DNA of 64,000 bases from Candidatus Levyibacteriota bacterium (GTDB lineage: Bacteria; Patescibacteriota; Microgenomatia; Levybacterales; UBA12049): contig DAIDHK010000001.1 in NCBI GenBank assembly GCA_027459725.1, positions 131,411 through 195,410 of the forward strand, given 5' to 3'. The notes beneath the pieces were generated by a model that was not told where the DNA came from, did no database searches, and saw nothing but the letters and a program-made list of their open reading frames with translations. Both the position numbers and the translations under genes were made by a program. Shown piece by piece: positions 13,128-22,688 of this stretch (the stretch's first letter is position 1; each line of letters opens with the position of its first letter).

Positions 13128-15014
13128 TCATTCCCAGAGTGCGAAACGTTTACTAATCTTCTCTACTTCTTCATTATCACCAAAAAATCCAACCGCATAC
13201 AATTCAATGTCTTTTTCGTCCTGTTCTTCTATCATTTTGCCTAACTTTGTATCATCGGTTGTTTCAATCATATCTTTATTAAATGCCAGATGTAACATTC
13301 TTTTGTTTTCTACTTCCTGCAAAACATCATGTAACTCTGATTCGCTGGCAACTAATATGATTATGGCATATTGAGAATTACGCGGGAGATCTTTACCGTC
13401 TTTAGTAATAAAATATTCACCAGTTCCAAAATTTACTCCCATTTTATTTCCCAAATATGCGCCTACGTGAGCAGTTGCATTCATCGCCTTCCAGGAAGGT
13501 AAATCTTTACGCACAATTACTGCTGCTTTATGGGAGAAATCCTGTTTTCCAGAGTGCTGTCCTTCGTTTTTTACTTTTTGTCCTTCATCTTGTTTCATGG
13601 TTGGAAAGAATACCATTTCACGAACCGGTTTATCTACGAGCATACTAAATAATCTTTCTGAAATACCAAAACCGGCAGCTGGAGGCATACCATACTCTAA
13701 CGCTTCCACATAGTCCTCGTCCATCATCTGTGCTTCTTCATCTCCTGCCTCACGCAGTCTCATCTGCTCTTCAAATCTTTGCTTCTGGTCAATGGGATCA
13801 TTTAGTTCAGAAAATCCTTTACCCAGCTCTGAACCCATTGCTAAAATCTGTGTTCGCTCAACTAAATTTTCTCTGCCCGGAATACGTTTGGCAAGTGGTT
13901 CTACTTCTACCGGATGATTCATAACAAACATAGGCTGAATAAGTTGGGGACGGATAGTTTTTTTATATAAATAATCAAGCAATCTACCTTTACCCAAGTT
14001 AGGTTCAACCTGAATATGCAGTTTATCAGCTAAACGATACAAATCTTCAATGGTCATTTTCTCTGTATCTACCTGCCAATGCTCATTTAACAAATCTAGG
14101 TATTCTTTACGCGGCCACTTTCCGGACCAGTTAATCGTTTGTCCCTGCCAACTTGTTTGCAAACCAGCAAAAGTTGTTTTAATAACAGTTTGGTACATAT
14201 CCTGCAAAAAATCCATCAACTGATTATAGTCCGCATATGCCCAATAAAATTCCAACTGTGTATAATCCTGTAGATGTTCATCATCAATGCCTTCATTACG
14301 AAAGATTCTGCCAATTTCAAATACTTTTTCAAACCCACCTACCAATAAACGCTTAAGTGGTAATTCTAGCGAAATTCGAAGATATAAATCCATATCCTGT
14401 GCATTATGATGAGTTATGAATGGTCGGGCATCCGCACCTCCCGGAATTGATTGTAGAACAGGTGTCTCAACTTCTAAAAAACCATTATCAATAAGATACT
14501 GACGCATACTTTGCCAGAAAATTGTTTTCTTTTTAAATAACTCACGTAATTCCGGGTGCATTAATAAATCAAGATAGCGTTTACGCAACAGTACTTCTTT
14601 ATTTTTTATATCGTAAAATTCACTTGGTAAGGGTAATAGTGCTTTGGTCAGTAAGGTAAAACTAGTAGGAGCGATTGAGATTTCCCCTGCCATTGTTTTT
14701 ACCACTTCACCCTCAACTCCAATATAATCTCCAATATCTAATAAGTTTAGATTTTTATATAAATCTCCCAACAGTTTTTTTTGAAAAAAAATTTGAATTT
14801 TACCTGTCTCGTCCTTTAAATCGGCAAAGGCGATATTGCCATGTGTACGAAAAGAATATAGTTTACCAGCTGTCTTAACAGATCTACCTTCCATCTGCAA
14901 ACACTGAAAAACTGTCTGCTGCCTATCATATTTATGTATATAAGGATCCCATCCAATTTCCCTGATCCTGGCTAGTTTATCAATTCTTGCCTGTTTAAAG
15001 TTTACTTCATCCAT
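13128..15014 (-). CDS. lysS: Lysine--tRNA ligase (class II) with C-terminal DUF2000-like extension
   Basis: GGADARPF, YLRISLELPLKRL, FRNEG, YGMPPAAGFG, FFPTMK, then ~140 extra aa; own promoter TTGTTA-17-TACAAT 6 nt before ATG. Confidence 0.95.
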   Translation of the reverse strand: MDEVNFKQARIDKLARIREIGWDPYIHKYDRQQTVFQCLQMEGRSVKTAGKLYSFRTHGNIAFADLKDETGKIQIFFQKKLLGDLYKNLNLLDIGDYIGVEGEVVKTMAGEISIAPTSFTLLTKALLPLPSEFYDIKNKEVLLRKRYLDLLMHPELRELFKKKTIFWQSMRQYLIDNGFLEVETPVLQSIPGGADARPFITHHNAQDMDLYLRISLELPLKRLLVGGFEKVFEIGRIFRNEGIDDEHLQDYTQLEFYWAYADYNQLMDFLQDMYQTVIKTTFAGLQTSWQGQTINWSGKWPRKEYLDLLNEHWQVDTEKMTIEDLYRLADKLHIQVEPNLGKGRLLDYLYKKTIRPQLIQPMFVMNHPVEVEPLAKRIPGRENLVERTQILAMGSELGKGFSELNDPIDQKQRFEEQMRLREAGDEEAQMMDEDYVEALEYGMPPAAGFGISERLFSMLVDKPVREMVFFPTMKQDEGQKVKNEGQHSGKQDFSHKAAVIVRKDLPSWKAMNATAHVGAYLGNKMGVNFGTGEYFITKDGKDLPRNSQYAIIILVASESELHDVLQEVENKRMLHLAFNKDMIETTDDTKLGKMIEEQDEKDIELYAVGFFGDNEEVEKISKRFALWE

Positions 15015-15058: not shown

Positions 15059-15676
15059 CTAAAATTCTATTTTTTCTGAGCAGACAAATTGCAGACCTGT
15101 TTCAGAGTGATAGTATAACTGGTAATAATCAGCAAAATCCTTAAAATTACAAATAGAATAAATCTTATTGCCATCTGCTAGCCCTACATTTAAGGCAAAG
15201 ATTTCTCTACTATTATCTTTTAATATTTTTTTTAAATTTTCTAATGCTTTTTGGGGGGAGTTATTAACCAGTTCGTTTTTTAATAAATTCCAAATCTTCT
15301 CGGCTCCAATTTTTCCTCTTATATTAAGCGACACACCACGAAGAAGCCCATTAAAAACAAAAGCGTAACTGCCTTGTATATATGGCTGGTTAAAATCAAT
15401 ATTATTTTTGTGTTTTGCAAAAGACGCGCTTCTTGCATGAACTACGAACATATTACTGTTTGGTATTATCTCAAATAGATCTCTGTCCTGCCAAATTGGA
15501 TTTAGTGATTTAAACACCCGCCATTTTTTATCCTTATCAATCCATGCCACTCCCCATCCATCAGCTTGTCTGTCACCGTCCGGAGCCATGCTTTTTTCAG
15601 CTAAATCGGCAAACCTGTTTAAAATTACTGTTGACTCATTATTATTTTTTGATTGAATGAGTAGAAATCTACACAT
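15059..15676 (-). CDS. Class II glutamine amidotransferase-like Ntn hydrolase (YafJ/EgtC/DUG3 type)
   Basis: MCRF N-terminal nucleophile Cys, DGWGVAW, HARSAS, FNG, CSE; starts 3 nt after the lysJ stop. Confidence 0.85.
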   Translation of the reverse strand: MCRFLLIQSKNNNESTVILNRFADLAEKSMAPDGDRQADGWGVAWIDKDKKWRVFKSLNPIWQDRDLFEIIPNSNMFVVHARSASFAKHKNNIDFNQPYIQGSYAFVFNGLLRGVSLNIRGKIGAEKIWNLLKNELVNNSPQKALENLKKILKDNSREIFALNVGLADGNKIYSICNFKDFADYYQLYYHSETGLQFVCSEKIEF

Positions 15677-15679
15677 ATC

Positions 15680-16843
15680 TTAATCTAAATTTTCAATTAT
15701 TTTATTTAAACTTCTTATCATTAAATCAATATGTCTTTTTTGAATAATATACGAGGGTAGAAATCTTATTACGTCATCTCCTGCAGGAATGACCAGAATT
15801 TTTTCATCCTGCAACTGTTTCATGATTTTATTCCTAATGTCTTTTTTTACTACCAGTCCGATCATTAAGCCCTTACCCCTTACCGCTAATATTCTGTTGT
15901 TTTTTATTAAAGATAGCTCCTTCAAGAGATACAGTCCGTTATTTTTAACTTTAGTTAATGTTTTCTTATCAAGTAAATCGAGTGTGGCCATAATTCCGGC
16001 ACAAGCCAGTGGATTTCCCCCAAATGTCGAACTATGAATATGCTTAGGTACCAAATTTGCCACCACATCTGTAACAATCGTAGCACCGATTGGAATGCCC
16101 CCAGCTAATCCTTTGCCCAAGCATAAAATATCACCTGCAATTCCACCACTGGCAATAAATTTTCCAGTTCTGCCCATACCTGTTTGAATTTCATCGATGA
16201 TTAACATAATTTTTTTCGATTTGCAAATCTTTGAAATATTAATTAAAAAATTATCATCAGGGACATGGATACCTCCCTCTCCCTGAATCGGTTCTATAAT
16301 AAAACCTGCTGTATTTTCATCAATTACATTATTTAAGCTTTCAATATCATTGAATGGTATACTGACAAAATCCCACAATAATGGCATGAAGGGTTGTTTA
16401 TACCTTTCACCCGAAGTTGCAGAAAGTGCCCCCAATGTTTTTCCATGATAACCATGGTCACAAACGATAAATTTTTTCTTACCTGTTGACAGCACTGCAA
16501 ATTTTAATGCAGTTTCAATTGCCTCTGCTCCTGAGTTACTGAAATAAACTTGTGTATAATCATTGCCGCACTTATTTACCAGACGAGCTGCCGCACGCGC
16601 TCTCGTTTCATTAGTAAAACTTGCATGTAACGTAGTCAGTTTATTTATCTGATCAATCAGTGCTCTATTAATCCTCAGATTATTGTAACCTAAAATATTC
16701 ACTCCGTAATTTGTCATGAAATCTAAATATTGATTATCGTTCTCATCATAAAGATATACCCCTTTACCAAGCCTTAAGGATAGCTTTCTGTCAATATATG
16801 TATTGACTAAATAATTTTTCTGTAAAAACCCACTGATGTTCAT
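15680..16843 (-). CDS. lysJ: [LysW]-aminoadipate semialdehyde transaminase (class III PLP; LysJ/ArgD)
   Basis: FSNSGAEAIE, YHGKTLGALS, EPIQGEGG, DEIQTGMGRTG, GKGLAGG, STFGGNPLAC; context. Confidence 0.85.
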   Translation of the reverse strand: MNISGFLQKNYLVNTYIDRKLSLRLGKGVYLYDENDNQYLDFMTNYGVNILGYNNLRINRALIDQINKLTTLHASFTNETRARAAARLVNKCGNDYTQVYFSNSGAEAIETALKFAVLSTGKKKFIVCDHGYHGKTLGALSATSGERYKQPFMPLLWDFVSIPFNDIESLNNVIDENTAGFIIEPIQGEGGIHVPDDNFLINISKICKSKKIMLIIDEIQTGMGRTGKFIASGGIAGDILCLGKGLAGGIPIGATIVTDVVANLVPKHIHSSTFGGNPLACAGIMATLDLLDKKTLTKVKNNGLYLLKELSLIKNNRILAVRGKGLMIGLVVKKDIRNKIMKQLQDEKILVIPAGDDVIRFLPSYIIQKRHIDLMIRSLNKIIENLD

Positions 16844-17647
16844 TTAACTAATTACTGTACCTCCACCTTCTAATATTTTAACTATTGGATGAACAATCCT
16901 CCCATCTCCCCAATACATTTTTTTTAGGCCATATGTAAATGCTTTTTCTGCTCCCAGCAATTTCTTTTTCATTCTTCCTTTAGCAAATTGCATATAATTA
17001 TTAAGTTCAGCTCTGTCAATTTTTTTAATTAAACTACACGGATCATCTGCATCACGAAGTAAACCGGGCGCAGCAAAAAGTGATATCATTTTTTTAATTT
17101 TTAAATCCCTAATCATTACTGCTGCTGCAAAGTCATTATCTGTATTAACAATTTCGTTTTCATTACTTATGGCCGGCGGACAAACTACAGGTATATACTT
17201 ATTACCCAACAATAGTAATAATAAACGAGTATTTACCTTTTCTACTTTCCCAGTTAGATTATCAGTTATGAGTTTTGTCTTGCCATTCTCAACTGAGTAT
17301 ACGAAATTCTTTCTACTGGCTTCCCATAATCTACCATCCACTCCAGTTAATCCAACTGCATTTACCCCATATTTTTGCAAGGTTACGACAAGTCTTTTGT
17401 TGATCAGTCCAGCATAAGTCATCAGAAAAATATCAATAGCTTCATCGTTTGTGTAAATGCTACTTACCCCAGAAGGTGAGTGCAAAACTTTACTTGGAGC
17501 TTTTAACTTTTTAGCGATTTCATCTCTTGTCTCACTTGCTCCATGGATGATGATTATTCGTTCTTTATTTTTCAACAAATCAGATATATCCCTGCAGATA
17601 GCATCAATATTAAGATTTTTGCCCCCACCTATTTTAATTAAAACCAT
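16844..17647 (-). CDS. lysZ: [LysW]-aminoadipate kinase (LysZ/ArgB family)
   Basis: IKIGGG, IHGAS, SPSGVSS..T, GLTGVDG, NTDND, GRMKKK. Confidence 0.88.
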   Translation of the reverse strand: MVLIKIGGGKNLNIDAICRDISDLLKNKERIIIIHGASETRDEIAKKLKAPSKVLHSPSGVSSIYTNDEAIDIFLMTYAGLINKRLVVTLQKYGVNAVGLTGVDGRLWEASRKNFVYSVENGKTKLITDNLTGKVEKVNTRLLLLLLGNKYIPVVCPPAISNENEIVNTDNDFAAAVMIRDLKIKKMISLFAAPGLLRDADDPCSLIKKIDRAELNNYMQFAKGRMKKKLLGAEKAFTYGLKKMYWGDGRIVHPIVKILEGGGTVIS

Positions 17648-17652
17648 AATCT

Positions 17653-18900
17653 TTAAGAAACCTGTTTCATTGCCTTTTCTTTATACTCTTCACCTATATG
17701 ATAACGATTAGCAACTTCCCAAAGTATAGACTCACAGGTATTATCTTTACCCATACGGCAAGACTCATCTTTATAGATATTGGTAATTACCTTTGCAAGA
17801 GTATCACTTACTCTATAGCCATGTCCTAATAAATAGCTTTGCACATGATGCCATCCGCTATAAGGATTAAGCACAAACTGATTCTCAGGAACTCCAAACA
17901 CCGATAGATCCACTGAACGATAAGCATTAGGATTTTTCATTACTGCATCTGTATGTACACCTGCACAATGTGTAGCATTGTCTTGGGAAACTAATTCTGA
18001 TTCTGGAACAGGAACTTTCAAAATATTACTCATAAGTTGATTTAAGTTGAAGATAAGTTTTAGATTAAAGCTTCTAAGCAAATTGGGATTAAATTCATAA
18101 AGTCTAAGTAATAAATTTCCAAAGGATGTTATTCCTGTCCGTTCTGCCCAACCCCATATTGATGTGTCAATCAGTGACATCCCTGCTTTTGCAGCTATTA
18201 GTGAATTATGCAACGATTCGCCTCTATCATTATGAAAATGTCCCTCCAAGTACTTATTCGGATAACGAGTTTGCATCTCTTTTATAACCTTTTTTATAGT
18301 TTCTTCCGTAGCAACTCCCACTGTGTCAGGAATTCCAAATGTATTTACATAAGGTTCAGCTGCATCAAATGCCAGTTGTCTATCAAGTGGATCTGACCTG
18401 AAGGCATCTTCAGTACTATAACGGATATATAATCCAGGATATGAGGAGCGAACTTCCCGTAAGGTTCTTCCCACTCTATCTGCAACTTCGGCAGGACTTT
18501 TCTGATGTCCGGCATATTGGGCTACCCCCATATAAACATGTATTCCGTCAACACCTCCCTCAATAGCTGAATTTATATCGTCTTCGTGACAACGAACGTG
18601 GGCATTTATTCTTGGCCTTTGTCCTTCAGGATAGCTATCCGCGAGCAGACGAACAGCCGCCAAACTCTCCCGTTCAAGACCGTTCACATTAGGTGAGAAA
18701 ACCTCAAAATTGCGTACACCTATATCATACATTGCACTAACCAGTCTTAACCTCTCATCAATATTAAGGGTTGGCCTTCCAAAATATCTTCTACTCTGTA
18801 AACCATCTCTGAGGGTTGTATCAATATTAGTTATATATTCCCCATTTACTTTGCCCGATGTTGGAAAGATTTCTGGTGATCCTGTTTCTTTTATTCTCAT
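17653..18900 (-). CDS. Homocitrate synthase (DRE-TIM family, fungal/Thermus-like)
   Basis: IDTTLRDGLQ, HVRCH, RYSTEDAFRS, IPDTVG, HFHNDRG, ERTGIT, HCAGVH. Confidence 0.85.
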   Translation of the reverse strand: MRIKETGSPEIFPTSGKVNGEYITNIDTTLRDGLQSRRYFGRPTLNIDERLRLVSAMYDIGVRNFEVFSPNVNGLERESLAAVRLLADSYPEGQRPRINAHVRCHEDDINSAIEGGVDGIHVYMGVAQYAGHQKSPAEVADRVGRTLREVRSSYPGLYIRYSTEDAFRSDPLDRQLAFDAAEPYVNTFGIPDTVGVATEETIKKVIKEMQTRYPNKYLEGHFHNDRGESLHNSLIAAKAGMSLIDTSIWGWAERTGITSFGNLLLRLYEFNPNLLRSFNLKLIFNLNQLMSNILKVPVPESELVSQDNATHCAGVHTDAVMKNPNAYRSVDLSVFGVPENQFVLNPYSGWHHVQSYLLGHGYRVSDTLAKVITNIYKDESCRMGKDNTCESILWEVANRYHIGEEYKEKAMKQVS

Positions 18901-18904
18901 AATT

Positions 18905-19933
18905 TTAAATTGGGTGCAAGCCAGTAAATGTTAAACTTGTCGTTTCCGGCCATCCACACATTAAATTCAATGCCTGTACCGCCTGCCCAGCCGTGCCTTT
19001 AACTAAATTATCTATTGCCCCTATTACTACTAGTCGATTAGTATGTTTATCTAATTCAAAACCAATATCACAATAATTAGTTCCCTGTAGAATCTTTGGT
19101 TCAGGGTAGCGATAAAGACCGCTTTTCTCTTTGACAATCCGGATAAATGGTTCATCTCTATATACACTTTTGTATACTTTCCAAATTTCTTTCTCAGTTA
19201 TCCACTCTTTCGGTCTGGTATGAATAGTCACTAATAAACCTCTTACCATATCTATGGCTGTTGCAGAAATAGAGACATTAAGTCCAGCTAATTCCTGTTC
19301 TATCTCAGCAGTATGACGATGACCTGTTGGCATATATGAGCGCACCACACCTGAGCGTTCAGGATGATGAGAAGATAATGAAAAACTCATACCTGCTTGT
19401 GAACTGCTCATTTTTGCATCGATAATAACTTCACTTTCAATCACATTATTTTTAACCAATGGGAACAGGGAAAGTATGGAAACCGTAGCTTCACAACCAG
19501 CACATGCCACATAATCGGAATTTTTTATTTCTTCCCGATGTAATTCAGAGATACCGTAGACAAATTGTTTAAGTAAATCTGCTGAAAGATGTTTTTGGTG
19601 ATACCATTCGGTAAATTTTCCTTCATCATGTAAGCGAAAATCCGCTCCCAAATCAATGATTTTTTTTGCCTTTCTTTTAAATTTATTCATTAAACTCATT
19701 GATATTCCATTAGGCAATGCCACAATTAGTACATCACATTTTTCTAATTTTGCTGGCGATACAAATGACATATCGGTTGCTTTGCGTAAATTAGGATGAA
19801 CTAAACTTACCGGTTGATTAGCAAACTGACGTGATGTCACTTGTTGCAAAGAAACTTTAGGATGTTGAAGTAAAATCCTCAAAAGCTCACCGCCCGCATA
19901 CCCGGATCCGCCAACAATAGATACCTTAATCAT
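18905..19933 (-). CDS. lysY: [LysW]-aminoadipate-6-phosphate reductase (LysY/ArgC family)
   Basis: GGSGYAGGELLR, DLGADFRL, AGCEAT, HHPERSG, HRHTAEI, IDNLVKGTAGQAVQ. Confidence 0.9.
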   Translation of the reverse strand: MIKVSIVGGSGYAGGELLRILLQHPKVSLQQVTSRQFANQPVSLVHPNLRKATDMSFVSPAKLEKCDVLIVALPNGISMSLMNKFKRKAKKIIDLGADFRLHDEGKFTEWYHQKHLSADLLKQFVYGISELHREEIKNSDYVACAGCEATVSILSLFPLVKNNVIESEVIIDAKMSSSQAGMSFSLSSHHPERSGVVRSYMPTGHRHTAEIEQELAGLNVSISATAIDMVRGLLVTIHTRPKEWITEKEIWKVYKSVYRDEPFIRIVKEKSGLYRYPEPKILQGTNYCDIGFELDKHTNRLVVIGAIDNLVKGTAGQAVQALNLMCGWPETTSLTFTGLHPI

Positions 19934-20778
19934 AAATTTTTATATACCTCCAAACAATAATCGATGACCTCTCCAGAAATATTCACTCCCGTTGGCTCTT
20001 CAGAATTCTTAAATTCCATAGTATGATTTATTTCATTGACCAAATATCCTTCGTCTGTTTCAAAAATATCCAGAGCCAGAATACCACCACCAACTGCATT
20101 TGAAGCATTACCGGCTAAAGTACGTAATGCTTTATTTAATTTACAATTTAAAGCTTCCCCTCCCCTGGCTGTATTAGTAATCCAATGCTCTGACTTACGA
20201 TAAATTGCACAAACCGCCTTCCCGTTTATTACGAACACTCTGATATCTCTACCTGGTTTTCTAATATACTGCTGGATATAGAGCGACTTCTGCTGTGGAG
20301 AACCGAGTACATCTTTATGTTCAATCAGCGCTTCTAAACTATCAGTATCATTCACTTTGGCTAATAGCCTACCCCATGAACCCAAGTTTGGTTTGATAAC
20401 TACTGGGTAACCTCCCATTTGCTCAATTGCTAATCGCGCTTCTTCAACCCCAAATACTAATGCAAATTTTGGTGTTGAAATTTTATTCTTCTGTAAAACT
20501 AGAGATGTCAAAAACTTATCCTCACAAATACTCGCTACTTTTGATGAGTTTATGACTTTAACACCCTGTGACTCTAAAAACTTAGTAGCATAGCCGCCTT
20601 TAACAGTAGACACACAACGTTCTAATGCTAAATCAAATTCTGTAGTATAAGTTAACGGATTAAAGACTACATTACGGACGTCAATTAATCTTATATTTAA
20701 CTTACGCTTTTTTGCAGCATCTAAAAGTAGTTTTTCATCAGCACGGATTAGAGTATGTAAAATACCGAGAGTAAGCAT
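19930..20778 (-). CDS. lysX: Alpha-aminoadipate--LysW ligase LysX (RimK-type ATP-grasp)
   Basis: KPNLGSWGRLL, KPGRDIR, HWITNTARGG, NEINHTMEFKNS (LysX-type rather than ArgX-type FKGF). Confidence 0.92.
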   Translation of the reverse strand: MLTLGILHTLIRADEKLLLDAAKKRKLNIRLIDVRNVVFNPLTYTTEFDLALERCVSTVKGGYATKFLESQGVKVINSSKVASICEDKFLTSLVLQKNKISTPKFALVFGVEEARLAIEQMGGYPVVIKPNLGSWGRLLAKVNDTDSLEALIEHKDVLGSPQQKSLYIQQYIRKPGRDIRVFVINGKAVCAIYRKSEHWITNTARGGEALNCKLNKALRTLAGNASNAVGGGILALDIFETDEGYLVNEINHTMEFKNSEEPTGVNISGEVIDYCLEVYKNL

Positions 20779-20802: not shown

Positions 20803-20985
20803 TTACTCTCCCCAATCCTCCTCAACTTCAGGAGCCTCTTTTAAGACAGCTTTATTGTCGTTCAAATTGTCTATTACCAGACGTGATTTACAATCTGCAC
20901 ATGAAATAACTTCGGCAACCTGAGTTGAAGGAACCAACTTAGTTGTAGCATCACATACAGGACATACTGCAAGAATATTTTTCAT
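20803..20985 (-). CDS. lysW: Amino-group carrier protein LysW
   Basis: CPVC...CADC zinc ribbon and diagnostic C-terminal EEDWGE. Confidence 0.95.
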   Translation of the reverse strand: MKNILAVCPVCDATTKLVPSTQVAEVISCADCKSRLVIDNLNDNKAVLKEAPEVEEDWGE

Positions 20986-20994
20986 AATAATTCC

Positions 20995-21022
20995 ATTATA
21001 TTATTTGATTTTCTATAGTCAA
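20995..21022 (-). promoter_or_regulatory. Promoter of the lysW operon
   Basis: TTGACT-16-TATAAT, 9 nt before the lysW ATG. Confidence 0.65.
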
Positions 21023-21056
21023 TTTATTCACAATATTTGACAATTATTTTAATTAA

Positions 21057-21072
21057 TGTTACATATGTAACA
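21057..21072. promoter_or_regulatory. Perfect 16-bp palindrome, candidate operator
   Basis: TGTTACATATGTAACA directly before ATG 21073 and 14 nt downstream of TTGACA (21037-21042). Confidence 0.6.
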
Positions 21073-21723
21073 ATGATTACTACTACTGAAATAGTAAAGG
21101 ATATTATTCAAACTTCACCTCTGTTGGAAGATGGTCTGGCAAAAGGCATTATTAGTTACTCAGCTCTAGCAAGAGATATTAAACCAATTATTGAAAGAAG
21201 ATTATTAAAAAAAGTTACAAGAGGCGCTATCGTCATGGCTATTAAAAGATCAAGTATAAATTTAAAAAGAAGCAAAAAGCTTATAGAGAATATAGTAAGC
21301 TTAAGTAGCCTTACTGTAAGATCCAATCTTATCGAGTTGACATATCAAAACTCAGATACAATAGTTGAAAAACACAAAAAACTTTTTCTTTTGGCAGAGA
21401 AAAAAAATAATGCATTATATACCCTTTCTCAAGGTATTAGAGAAAGTATGATAGTGGTGGATGCCAATTTGGAGCATGATGTAGAAAATATATTGCTGGA
21501 TGAAAAACTTATTAAAAAAATTAGAAACTTATCCTCAATCACAATACTATTGTCCAAAGATACAGTTAATATTCCTGGAGTCTACTATTCTATCCTGAAA
21601 CTATTAGCATGGAACAGCATTAGTGTTGTTGATGTTGTATCAACTCTATCAGAGCTAACTATTGTTCTGGAAGACGCCTATGTGGATAAGGCGTTCTCCC
21701 TACTTAAAAACTACAATCTTTAG
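21073..21723 (+). CDS. HTH + ACT-domain protein, probable amino-acid responsive regulator (often mislabelled aspartate kinase)
   Basis: GIISYSALARDIKP helical N-terminus; C-terminal ACT-like PGVYYSILKLLAWNSISVVDVVSTLSELTIVL; no kinase domain; divergent from lysW. Confidence 0.75.
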   Translation: MITTTEIVKDIIQTSPLLEDGLAKGIISYSALARDIKPIIERRLLKKVTRGAIVMAIKRSSINLKRSKKLIENIVSLSSLTVRSNLIELTYQNSDTIVEKHKKLFLLAEKKNNALYTLSQGIRESMIVVDANLEHDVENILLDEKLIKKIRNLSSITILLSKDTVNIPGVYYSILKLLAWNSISVVDVVSTLSELTIVLEDAYVDKAFSLLKNYNL

Positions 21724-21734
21724 AAAAAATAGCT

Positions 21735-22688
21735 TTAAATTAGCGGGTCAATAACAACATAATTATTTTCAGGATCATGTAATCCATTTTTCTTGATCAT
21801 AACATTACCCCAATTTATATCATAATGTTGAAAGGACGGAGACCAATACCTATCTTTAATAGGATCAATAATTTTTTTAGCGGCTATTGCGATCTTAGGA
21901 ATTGAATCAAAAGCAAAATCCCAAACTCCATCGATAATTCTATCATCCTTTTCCAACACACCAGATCTCTGCAACTTCTCATAGTCATCAATTATTTGTG
22001 CAATAGTATAACCTTCTATATTCTCCTGAATTAGTATTTCACTAGATCCTAAATATACCTCGGGGACAGGTATGCCATTTTCTCCTAAATGACGCAAGGC
22101 AATATAATTTCCTAAGCCAGTTACTCCACTAAGATTCCATTCTTTTCCTGTTGTATCATCTTCATATTTTTTCCTGCCTACAGATGCTTTCCATCTTTGT
22201 TCTGAATAAGGAAATGCAAAGTTAAAGTACTTTATACAAAGATCAGGATAAGCTCGTTCTACAGTCTTAGGAGAGAAGCCTACTGCACCGTATCCACCAC
22301 CTCTAAAATTAGAAAAGCTGATAGAACCAGAACATACACTGTTTAAGAATAGCTTTAGTATTTCTCCAGCCTTTCTTCTATTTGTTAAATTTACCACCAA
22401 TCTATCCAGTACTACTTTATATCCCTCTTTCCTCGAGACATCCCGAACTGCATAACCATGTACTGCATTGGTTATCATGCAATCCACATGACCACCTTTA
22501 GAAAAATACATTAAATCTAAAGACTCCGGTGCAGTTGAAGATAACCTAGACAAATCGACTGAGTCTACTCTATCCACTGGAGTGTCTGCCATAAAAACAT
22601 TATATGGCCTAGCTTTTGGGCTCTTATGATGAAACTCACTTCTGGCCCGGGCGAACTCTGCTGGAATTTCTCTACCTTCTATCTCCAT
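21735..22688 (-). CDS. Protein-kinase-like fold hypothetical protein
   Basis: GGGYGAV loop, CIKY Lys, GIPVPEVY, QENIEG hinge, HYDINWGNVM catalytic loop, VVIDP. Confidence 0.7.
   Translation of the reverse strand: MEIEGREIPAEFARARSEFHHKSPKARPYNVFMADTPVDRVDSVDLSRLSSTAPESLDLMYFSKGGHVDCMITNAVHGYAVRDVSRKEGYKVVLDRLVVNLTNRRKAGEILKLFLNSVCSGSISFSNFRGGGYGAVGFSPKTVERAYPDLCIKYFNFAFPYSEQRWKASVGRKKYEDDTTGKEWNLSGVTGLGNYIALRHLGENGIPVPEVYLGSSEILIQENIEGYTIAQIIDDYEKLQRSGVLEKDDRIIDGVWDFAFDSIPKIAIAAKKIIDPIKDRYWSPSFQHYDINWGNVMIKKNGLHDPENNYVVIDPLI

Follow-up and report, generated by a model that had tools for sequence, protein, structure and literature searches.

Which enzyme releases lysine from the carrier protein LysW in a bacterium whose genome has no recognizable LysK? 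This question is raised by a seven-gene unit on the minus strand of the window, i.e., the whole stretch of 64,000 nucleotides that was analyzed. In 5' to 3' direction the unit consists of lysW, lysX, lysY, a homocitrate-synthase-like (hcs-like) gene, lysZ, lysJ, and a gene for an Ntn hydrolase. The intergenic gaps from lysW to the Ntn gene are 24, -4, 4, 5, 0, and 3 nt, and lysS follows 44 nt further on (Table 1). We consider it about 87% likely that the stand-alone Ntn hydrolase takes the place of LysK at the final step of the LysW pathway, a predicted activity that would represent a new variant of this pathway. The first-pass annotation had described a packed series from lysW to lysJ with a GATase-like gene 3 nt behind it, and the gaps, the family matches, and the motifs confirmed this description. 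It had assigned the feature to positions 15059..16843, which indeed cover the Ntn gene and lysJ, but the unit extends to 20985.

Table 1. Positions of the genes and of a putative promoter element at the locus, in window coordinates.
Feature	Position	Strand	Matches and remarks
lysS, class II lysyl-tRNA synthetase	13128..15014	-	NF001756, 541 bits, residues 7-475 of 628
Ntn hydrolase, stand-alone, 205 aa, class II GATase/EgtC-like fold; proposed LysW-gamma-lysine hydrolase	15059..15676	-	
lysJ, class III aminotransferase	15680..16843	-	PF00202, 333.9 bits; NF042418 (LysJ), 309 bits, cut-off of 700 not reached
lysZ, [LysW]-aminoadipate kinase	16844..17647	-	NF010659, 299.3 bits, cut-off 223
Homocitrate-synthase-like gene	17653..18900	-	PF00682 and PF22617; best NCBIfam TIGR02146, 192.9 bits, below cut-off of 413.55
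lysY, ArgC-like reductase	18905..19933	-	TIGR01850 (argC), 392 bits, cut-off 233.6
lysX, ATP-grasp ligase	19930..20778	-	TIGR02144, 321.7 bits, cut-off 275.6
lysW, zinc-ribbon carrier, 60 aa, C-terminus EEDWGE	20803..20985	-	NF041070, E 1.9e-12; PF21344
Sigma-70-like site TTGACT-16-TATAAT, just upstream of lysW	20995..21022	-	Score 11/12
Divergent gene, 228 aa, DUF7523/ACT-like; candidate regulator travelling with the operon	21037..21723	+	No Pfam/NCBIfam match

The operon contains the hallmarks of the LysW pathway, namely a zinc-ribbon carrier with an EDWGE end together with LysX, LysZ, LysY, and LysJ. The NCBIfam cut-offs were passed by LysX, LysY, and LysZ. LysJ, HCS, and LysW matched the expected families with scores that do not reach the curated cut-offs, and the two LysW matches, to NF041070 and PF21344, were both just or well under the cut-off. 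The LysX signature F182-I192-T203-N258-S259 is of the aminoadipate type (F-I-T-NS), which is listed as the 'LysX type' signature in Table 1 of PMC12998189 (section 6). Because LysX carries this signature, the product of the operon is likely to be lysine.

The genome of the window has a size of 1.5 Mb and is 98.67% complete. LysK was not found in it as a release enzyme, and genome-wide searches with the M20 models PF01546 and PF07687 (E<=0.1) revealed no M20 peptidase; the same models were positive in all 14 control genomes. The lack of an M20 carboxypeptidase, which had been noted for the window, could thus be extended to the whole genome. Of the upstream enzymes of aminoadipate synthesis (HCS, LysT/U, HICDH), only the HCS-like gene is present, and no match was found in this genome for aconitase (PF00330), the isocitrate/isopropylmalate dehydrogenase family Iso_dh (PF00180), ArgJ, or LysA-type proteins. 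These missing matches leave no evident source of aminoadipate, and hence of flux through the pathway, in this genome, which counts against a replacement of LysK. The HCS-like gene has been kept despite the lack of aconitase and Iso_dh matches, and its GC content of about 0.40 is higher than that of its neighbors.

The Ntn protein passed the cut-off of Pfam GATase_4 (PF13230; 37.4 bits, cut-off 23). Its predicted structure has an Ntn fold with EgtC as the top match in a structure comparison, and a Cys sits directly after the initiator Met (MCRF). Further motifs are DGWG (39), HARSAS (80), FNG (108), and IGAE (123). C2, R82, N109, and G110 are invariant across an alignment of Ntn relatives (A1). 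An alignment by eye had suggested that the carboxylate-binding Arg and the Asn-Gly oxyanion residues are kept, and both R82 and the oxyanion motif N109/G110 were indeed found in 120/120 closest relatives. The same alignment had read IGAE in place of TDSE, and this was upheld by three computed alignments, i.e., with PDB 3mdn (GSTDSEV), with two GlmS plus two GATase_4 proteins, and with hhalign. In class II GATases the Asp of TDSE binds the alpha-amino group of glutamine. Its column is occupied by Gly124 in the Ntn protein. Gly124 was present in 120/120, 66/69, and 72/80 members of three sets of relatives, an Asp in 0/269, and Lys or Arg at position 127 in 120/120, 66/69, and 72/80 members of the same sets.

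Several known families were compared with the Ntn protein. The nearest in function is LysK, the [LysW]-lysine hydrolase of the M20 ArgE/DapE family (TIGR01902, NF003367; PDB 5xoy), for which the reaction, the substrate, and the pathway step are the same as those predicted for the Ntn protein; the reference LysK that was used matches PDB 5xoy at E 1e-93. However, LysK is a metallopeptidase of 350 aa and the Ntn protein is a cysteine hydrolase of 205 aa, with an unrelated fold and chemistry. Membership in the M20/LysK family was rejected, because the Ntn protein matches no M20 model and has an Ntn fold in the model. EgtC, the amidohydrolase of the ergothioneine pathway (TIGR03442; PDB 4zfj, 4zfk, 4zfl), is 18-20% identical and acts on a small molecule, whereas a protein C-terminus is the predicted substrate of the Ntn enzyme. 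Identity with EgtC was also rejected, based on a score of 57.2 bits against a TIGR03442 cut-off of 218.65 (four relatives: 36.7-65.2) and on the gene neighborhoods, in which the recurrent genes are lys genes and no egt gene (egtABDE) was among them.

The glutaminase domains of the class II amidotransferases GlmS/GFAT and PurF differ from the Ntn protein in three positions: the Trp of the ammonia channel is Ser83, the His of NAHP is Gln97 or Met, and the Asp of TDSE/TDTE is Gly124. In addition, no synthase domain is fused to the 205-aa open reading frame. Longer forms were found only as read-throughs into LysZ (P0255) or from LysJ (P0272), and the search among longer proteins carries little weight. 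Lacking both the Asp of the glutamine pocket and a synthase domain, the protein was not regarded as a class II glutamine amidotransferase proper; the genome encodes its own GlmS and PurF. The Pfam family and the fold are shared with the stand-alone GATase_4 proteins (SPO2029, PDB 3mdn; P. aeruginosa, 1te5), but 3mdn and the two aligned GATase_4 outgroups keep TDSE, unlike the Ntn family. Further stand-alone members of GATase_4 are DUG3 and YafJ. In a tree, a long branch (100/100) separates three GATase_4 outgroups from all 49 rows of the family, including both of its clades. Among named relatives, the one nearest to the Ntn protein (68% identity) belongs to a Candidatus Levyibacteriota record, and the annotation of family members does not go beyond 'glutamine amidotransferase' or hypothetical.

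The distributions of the Ntn gene and of LysK were compared in three samples of genomes, and the anti-correlation predicted by the first-pass annotation was observed. In the class of the window (301 genomes) LysX was present in 16 genomes, all of which have the Ntn gene, which was found in 17 genomes in total; LysK over the cut-off was found in none. Among 201 Acidobacteriota genomes, the 25 with LysX comprised 14 with only the Ntn gene and 11 with only LysK, while none had both and none had neither. LysK had been predicted for just the 11 Ntn-less genomes with LysX, and it was found in exactly those (Fisher p 2e-7, an overstated value because related genomes are not independent). Of the 121 Chloroflexota genomes, 47 contained LysX, and all of these had a LysK-type match (46 above the cut-off, one partial at E 7e-45). 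The Ntn gene was found only in the centre genome of this sample, which had been picked for carrying it and has both enzymes. Since bacteria with the LysW pathway almost always have either the Ntn gene or LysK, the Ntn enzyme likely cuts lysine off LysW. The two Ntn copies sampled from genomes without LysX were both decayed: the copy of G282 (L118:9203-9900) has no Met-Cys-Arg start, and that of G526 (L308:9920-10800) is a fragment adjoining a short lysJ remnant.

For clade 1 of the family, the best 80 of 251 genome stretches encoding an Ntn relative were analyzed. In 65 of these 80 loci the Ntn gene lies directly after lysJ. This is also the slot of lysK, which occupies it in 10 of the 11 Acidobacteriota LysK clusters that were fetched (the 11th stops at a contig edge) and in L123 and L145-L147. 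Genes for HCS, LysT/U (the homoaconitase subunits), and HICDH were present at 35, 11, and 13 of the 80 loci, respectively. As most of these genomes are incomplete assemblies, absence of LysK or M20 means 'not found'. With this reservation, a canonical LysK (above the TIGR01902 cut-off) was found in only 1 of the 65 genomes whose Ntn gene adjoins lysJ. This genome (G029) has two separate clusters, one closing with lysK and the other with the Ntn gene. Together with the lack of a canonical lysK in the genome of the window, this result supports the replacement of LysK that had been suggested before.

In the remaining 15 clade-1 loci the Ntn gene is not adjacent to lysJ. Three of them begin at a contig edge, five are from Entotheonella, and seven are from genomes with a canonical LysK. 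In the latter seven the unlinked Ntn copy has intact motifs. The Ntn family can therefore persist alongside LysK, and these genomes argue against a strict one-to-one rule. The five Entotheonella genomes contain LysX, an intact unlinked Ntn copy, and no LysK over the cut-off; their sister G076 has both enzymes.

Clade 2 emerged when 1.84 billion representatives were searched with a profile, and it is 29% identical to clade 1 by profile. The best 80 of 453 metagenome stretches were analyzed, and a lys neighbor was found at 79 of these. The gene order is lysW-lysX-lysY-Ntn-lysZ-lysJ, and thus the Ntn gene lies between lysY and lysZ and not in the lysK slot. This arrangement, the seven genomes with both enzymes, and the Gln-ended carriers described below go beyond the earlier annotation. 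No LysK was found in these 80 loci, with at least 1.5 kb visible past lysJ in 28 of them. The named members belong to Calditrichota, Ignavibacteria, Bacteroidota, and Acidobacteriota, and include Pyranulibacter aquaticus (WP_436270383.1), which we take to be a cultured organism. Clade 1 contains 733 clusters at 90% identity and the clade-2 profile finds 3367. The family as a whole occurs in Patescibacteria, Acidobacteriota, Calditrichota, Ignavibacteria, and others. In the LysX tree, 62 clade-1 rows form one clade (99), and the LysX of clade 2 is nearer to the LysK-type LysX. Two clade-1 Ntn genes are paired with a clade-2-type LysX, and the Ntn gene thus accompanies more than one LysX lineage. 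The F-I-T-NS signature was found in 50/63 clade-1 and 42/42 clade-2 LysX rows. The 13 other clade-1 rows have T/V/H/N-I-T-NV (11) or Y-I-T-NS (2); for LysX proteins with these signatures, the loaded substrate may not be aminoadipate.

The replacement of LysK is based on the fold, the conserved catalytic residues, the operon position, the lack of M20 in the genome of the window, and the either/or distribution, and from the distribution we infer hydrolysis of LysW-gamma-Lys. The bond to be cut would be the isopeptide between the gamma-carboxyl of the C-terminal Glu of LysW and the alpha-amino group of lysine. After removal of Met1, Cys2 would attack the gamma-carbonyl of the terminal Glu, while Asn109-Gly110 would hold the oxyanion and Arg82 would bind the free C-terminal carboxylate of the carrier. 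Lysine would leave, and hydrolysis of the thioester by water would regenerate LysW-Glu. With Gly124 in place of Asp, there would be space for the carrier chain, which runs on from the alpha-nitrogen of this Glu, and Lys/Arg127, a nearly invariant position, may serve to bind the acidic end of LysW. With ammonia as leaving group, the identical steps could convert LysW-Gln to LysW-Glu.

Deamidation by the same chemistry would explain the frequency of Gln-ended carriers in Ntn operons. LysW ends with Gln at 10/55 clade-1 and 19/44 clade-2 loci (29/99 in total). Gln-ended carriers were seen in 5 of 10 visible Ntn clusters versus 0 of 11 LysK clusters of Acidobacteriota, and in none of the 23 Chloroflexota loci with a visible LysW (30 examined). 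This frequent association suggests an added LysW-deamidating role of the Ntn enzyme. We lean slightly towards a single enzyme that both matures (Gln to Glu) and unloads LysW in place of LysK, and that would belong to an undescribed cysteine Ntn family of primary metabolism with a protein C-terminus as its substrate.

The Gln-ended carriers could also indicate a pure maturase or repair enzyme, which deamidates LysW or strips mis-loaded amino acids while another hydrolase frees lysine. Amide hydrolysis with release of ammonia is the ancestral reaction of the family, and in G070 a LysK coexists with an unlinked Ntn gene and with a LysW that ends with Gln (L139). However, 70 of the 99 carriers, including that of the window, end with Glu and the gene is nevertheless retained, the genome of the window has no M20 enzyme, and the mutual exclusion with LysK in Acidobacteriota (14 versus 11, none with both) is not expected of a maturase, which makes this explanation improbable. 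An equally small probability is assigned to the release of lysine by a generic M20 enzyme of the ArgE/DapE type that is encoded elsewhere in the genome; the Ntn protein would then be co-regulated and hydrolyze a small molecule, as a gamma-glutamyl amidase or glutaminase. Promiscuity of the M20 family is illustrated by LysK of T. thermophilus, which also takes N-acetylated substrates (PMC12998189, introduction). At E<=1e-5, M20 matches were obtained for 39 of the 65 genomes in which the Ntn gene adjoins lysJ (for 38 of them solely under the LysK cut-off). A DapE/ArgE-like M20 gene is located 0.3 kb upstream of lysW in L039, and in G575 and G599, two of the 14 Acidobacteriota Ntn genomes, an ArgE-like gene lies close to the operon within an arg-like cluster. 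Yet the other 26 genomes had no match, nor had the nearly complete genome of the window. In addition, the Asp that is retained in GlmS and GATase_4 proteins is missing throughout the Ntn family, and the Ntn gene decays where LysX is gone, neither of which fits an amidase for a small molecule.

The least probable of the explanations is a transferase that passes the gamma-acyl group or lysine from LysW conjugates to an acceptor, so that the product of the operon would not be free lysine. Acyl-thioester intermediates can be resolved by amines, the upstream aminoadipate genes are often missing from the clade-1 loci, as the counts for the homoaconitase subunits and HICDH given above illustrate, and a minority of LysX proteins (13/63) has non-canonical signatures. 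However, neither clade shows a recurrent, conserved gene for additional tailoring, some operons are complete (hcs-lysT-lysU-hicdh-lysZ-lysJ-Ntn in L124-L126), and a lysyl-tRNA synthetase gene often follows. Of the 80 clade-1 loci, 14 have a LysRS gene behind the Ntn gene and in the same orientation.

If the replacement of LysK by the Ntn hydrolase is true, the missing last step of lysine synthesis is filled in many bacteria, two unrelated enzymes for one carrier-release reaction provide a clean case, and a new type of substrate is added to the GATase-like Ntn fold. Pathway reconstructions would have to be corrected, including those for Patescibacteria, which are usually taken as amino-acid auxotrophs. 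No description of such a LysW-releasing Ntn enzyme was found in open-access full texts; subscription journals are mostly outside this search, and a prior report is possible. For the genome of Caldithrix abyssi, LysWXZYJ and Hcs are reported in one locus of eight genes; LysK is not named in the passage on this locus, in which the authors flag a possible non-orthologous displacement (PMC5317091).

The 228-aa gene divergent to the operon is a candidate for an amino-acid-sensing regulator. Homologues are present at 43/80 clade-1 loci and beside several clade-2 clusters, and its Atlas look-alikes are DUF7523 and ACT_7 (score 0.95, family share <30%). A paralogue is located at G000 C1:20338-21000. 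The sigma-70-like site upstream of lysW had the top score of 41 sites found, with a chance expectation of 35.0 +/- 6.3, and is a lead only. Next to the divergent gene, a 317-aa open reading frame (21735-22688, minus strand) has a kinase-like tail (HYDINWGN...VVIDP) and had no match in Pfam and NCBIfam searches. On the other side of the operon, the C-terminus of the lysS product has about 150 extra residues outside the LysRS models; the LysRS genes following the Ntn gene in relatives are of class I or class II.

A few records deserve mention for their titles. Near-identical Gottesmanbacteria-like clusters (L032 and L035) occur in records titled Borrarchaeota archaeon and Dehalococcoidia, a likeness due to either recent transfer or a binning error. 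L003, L007, L012, L018, and others are titled 'uncultured Gammaproteobacteria', have a size of about 1 Mb, and encode a LysX that groups with Patescibacteria; these titles may be wrong. Lastly, lysW is present in tandem, in two or three copies, in the LysK-type clusters L123, L229, L230, and L233.
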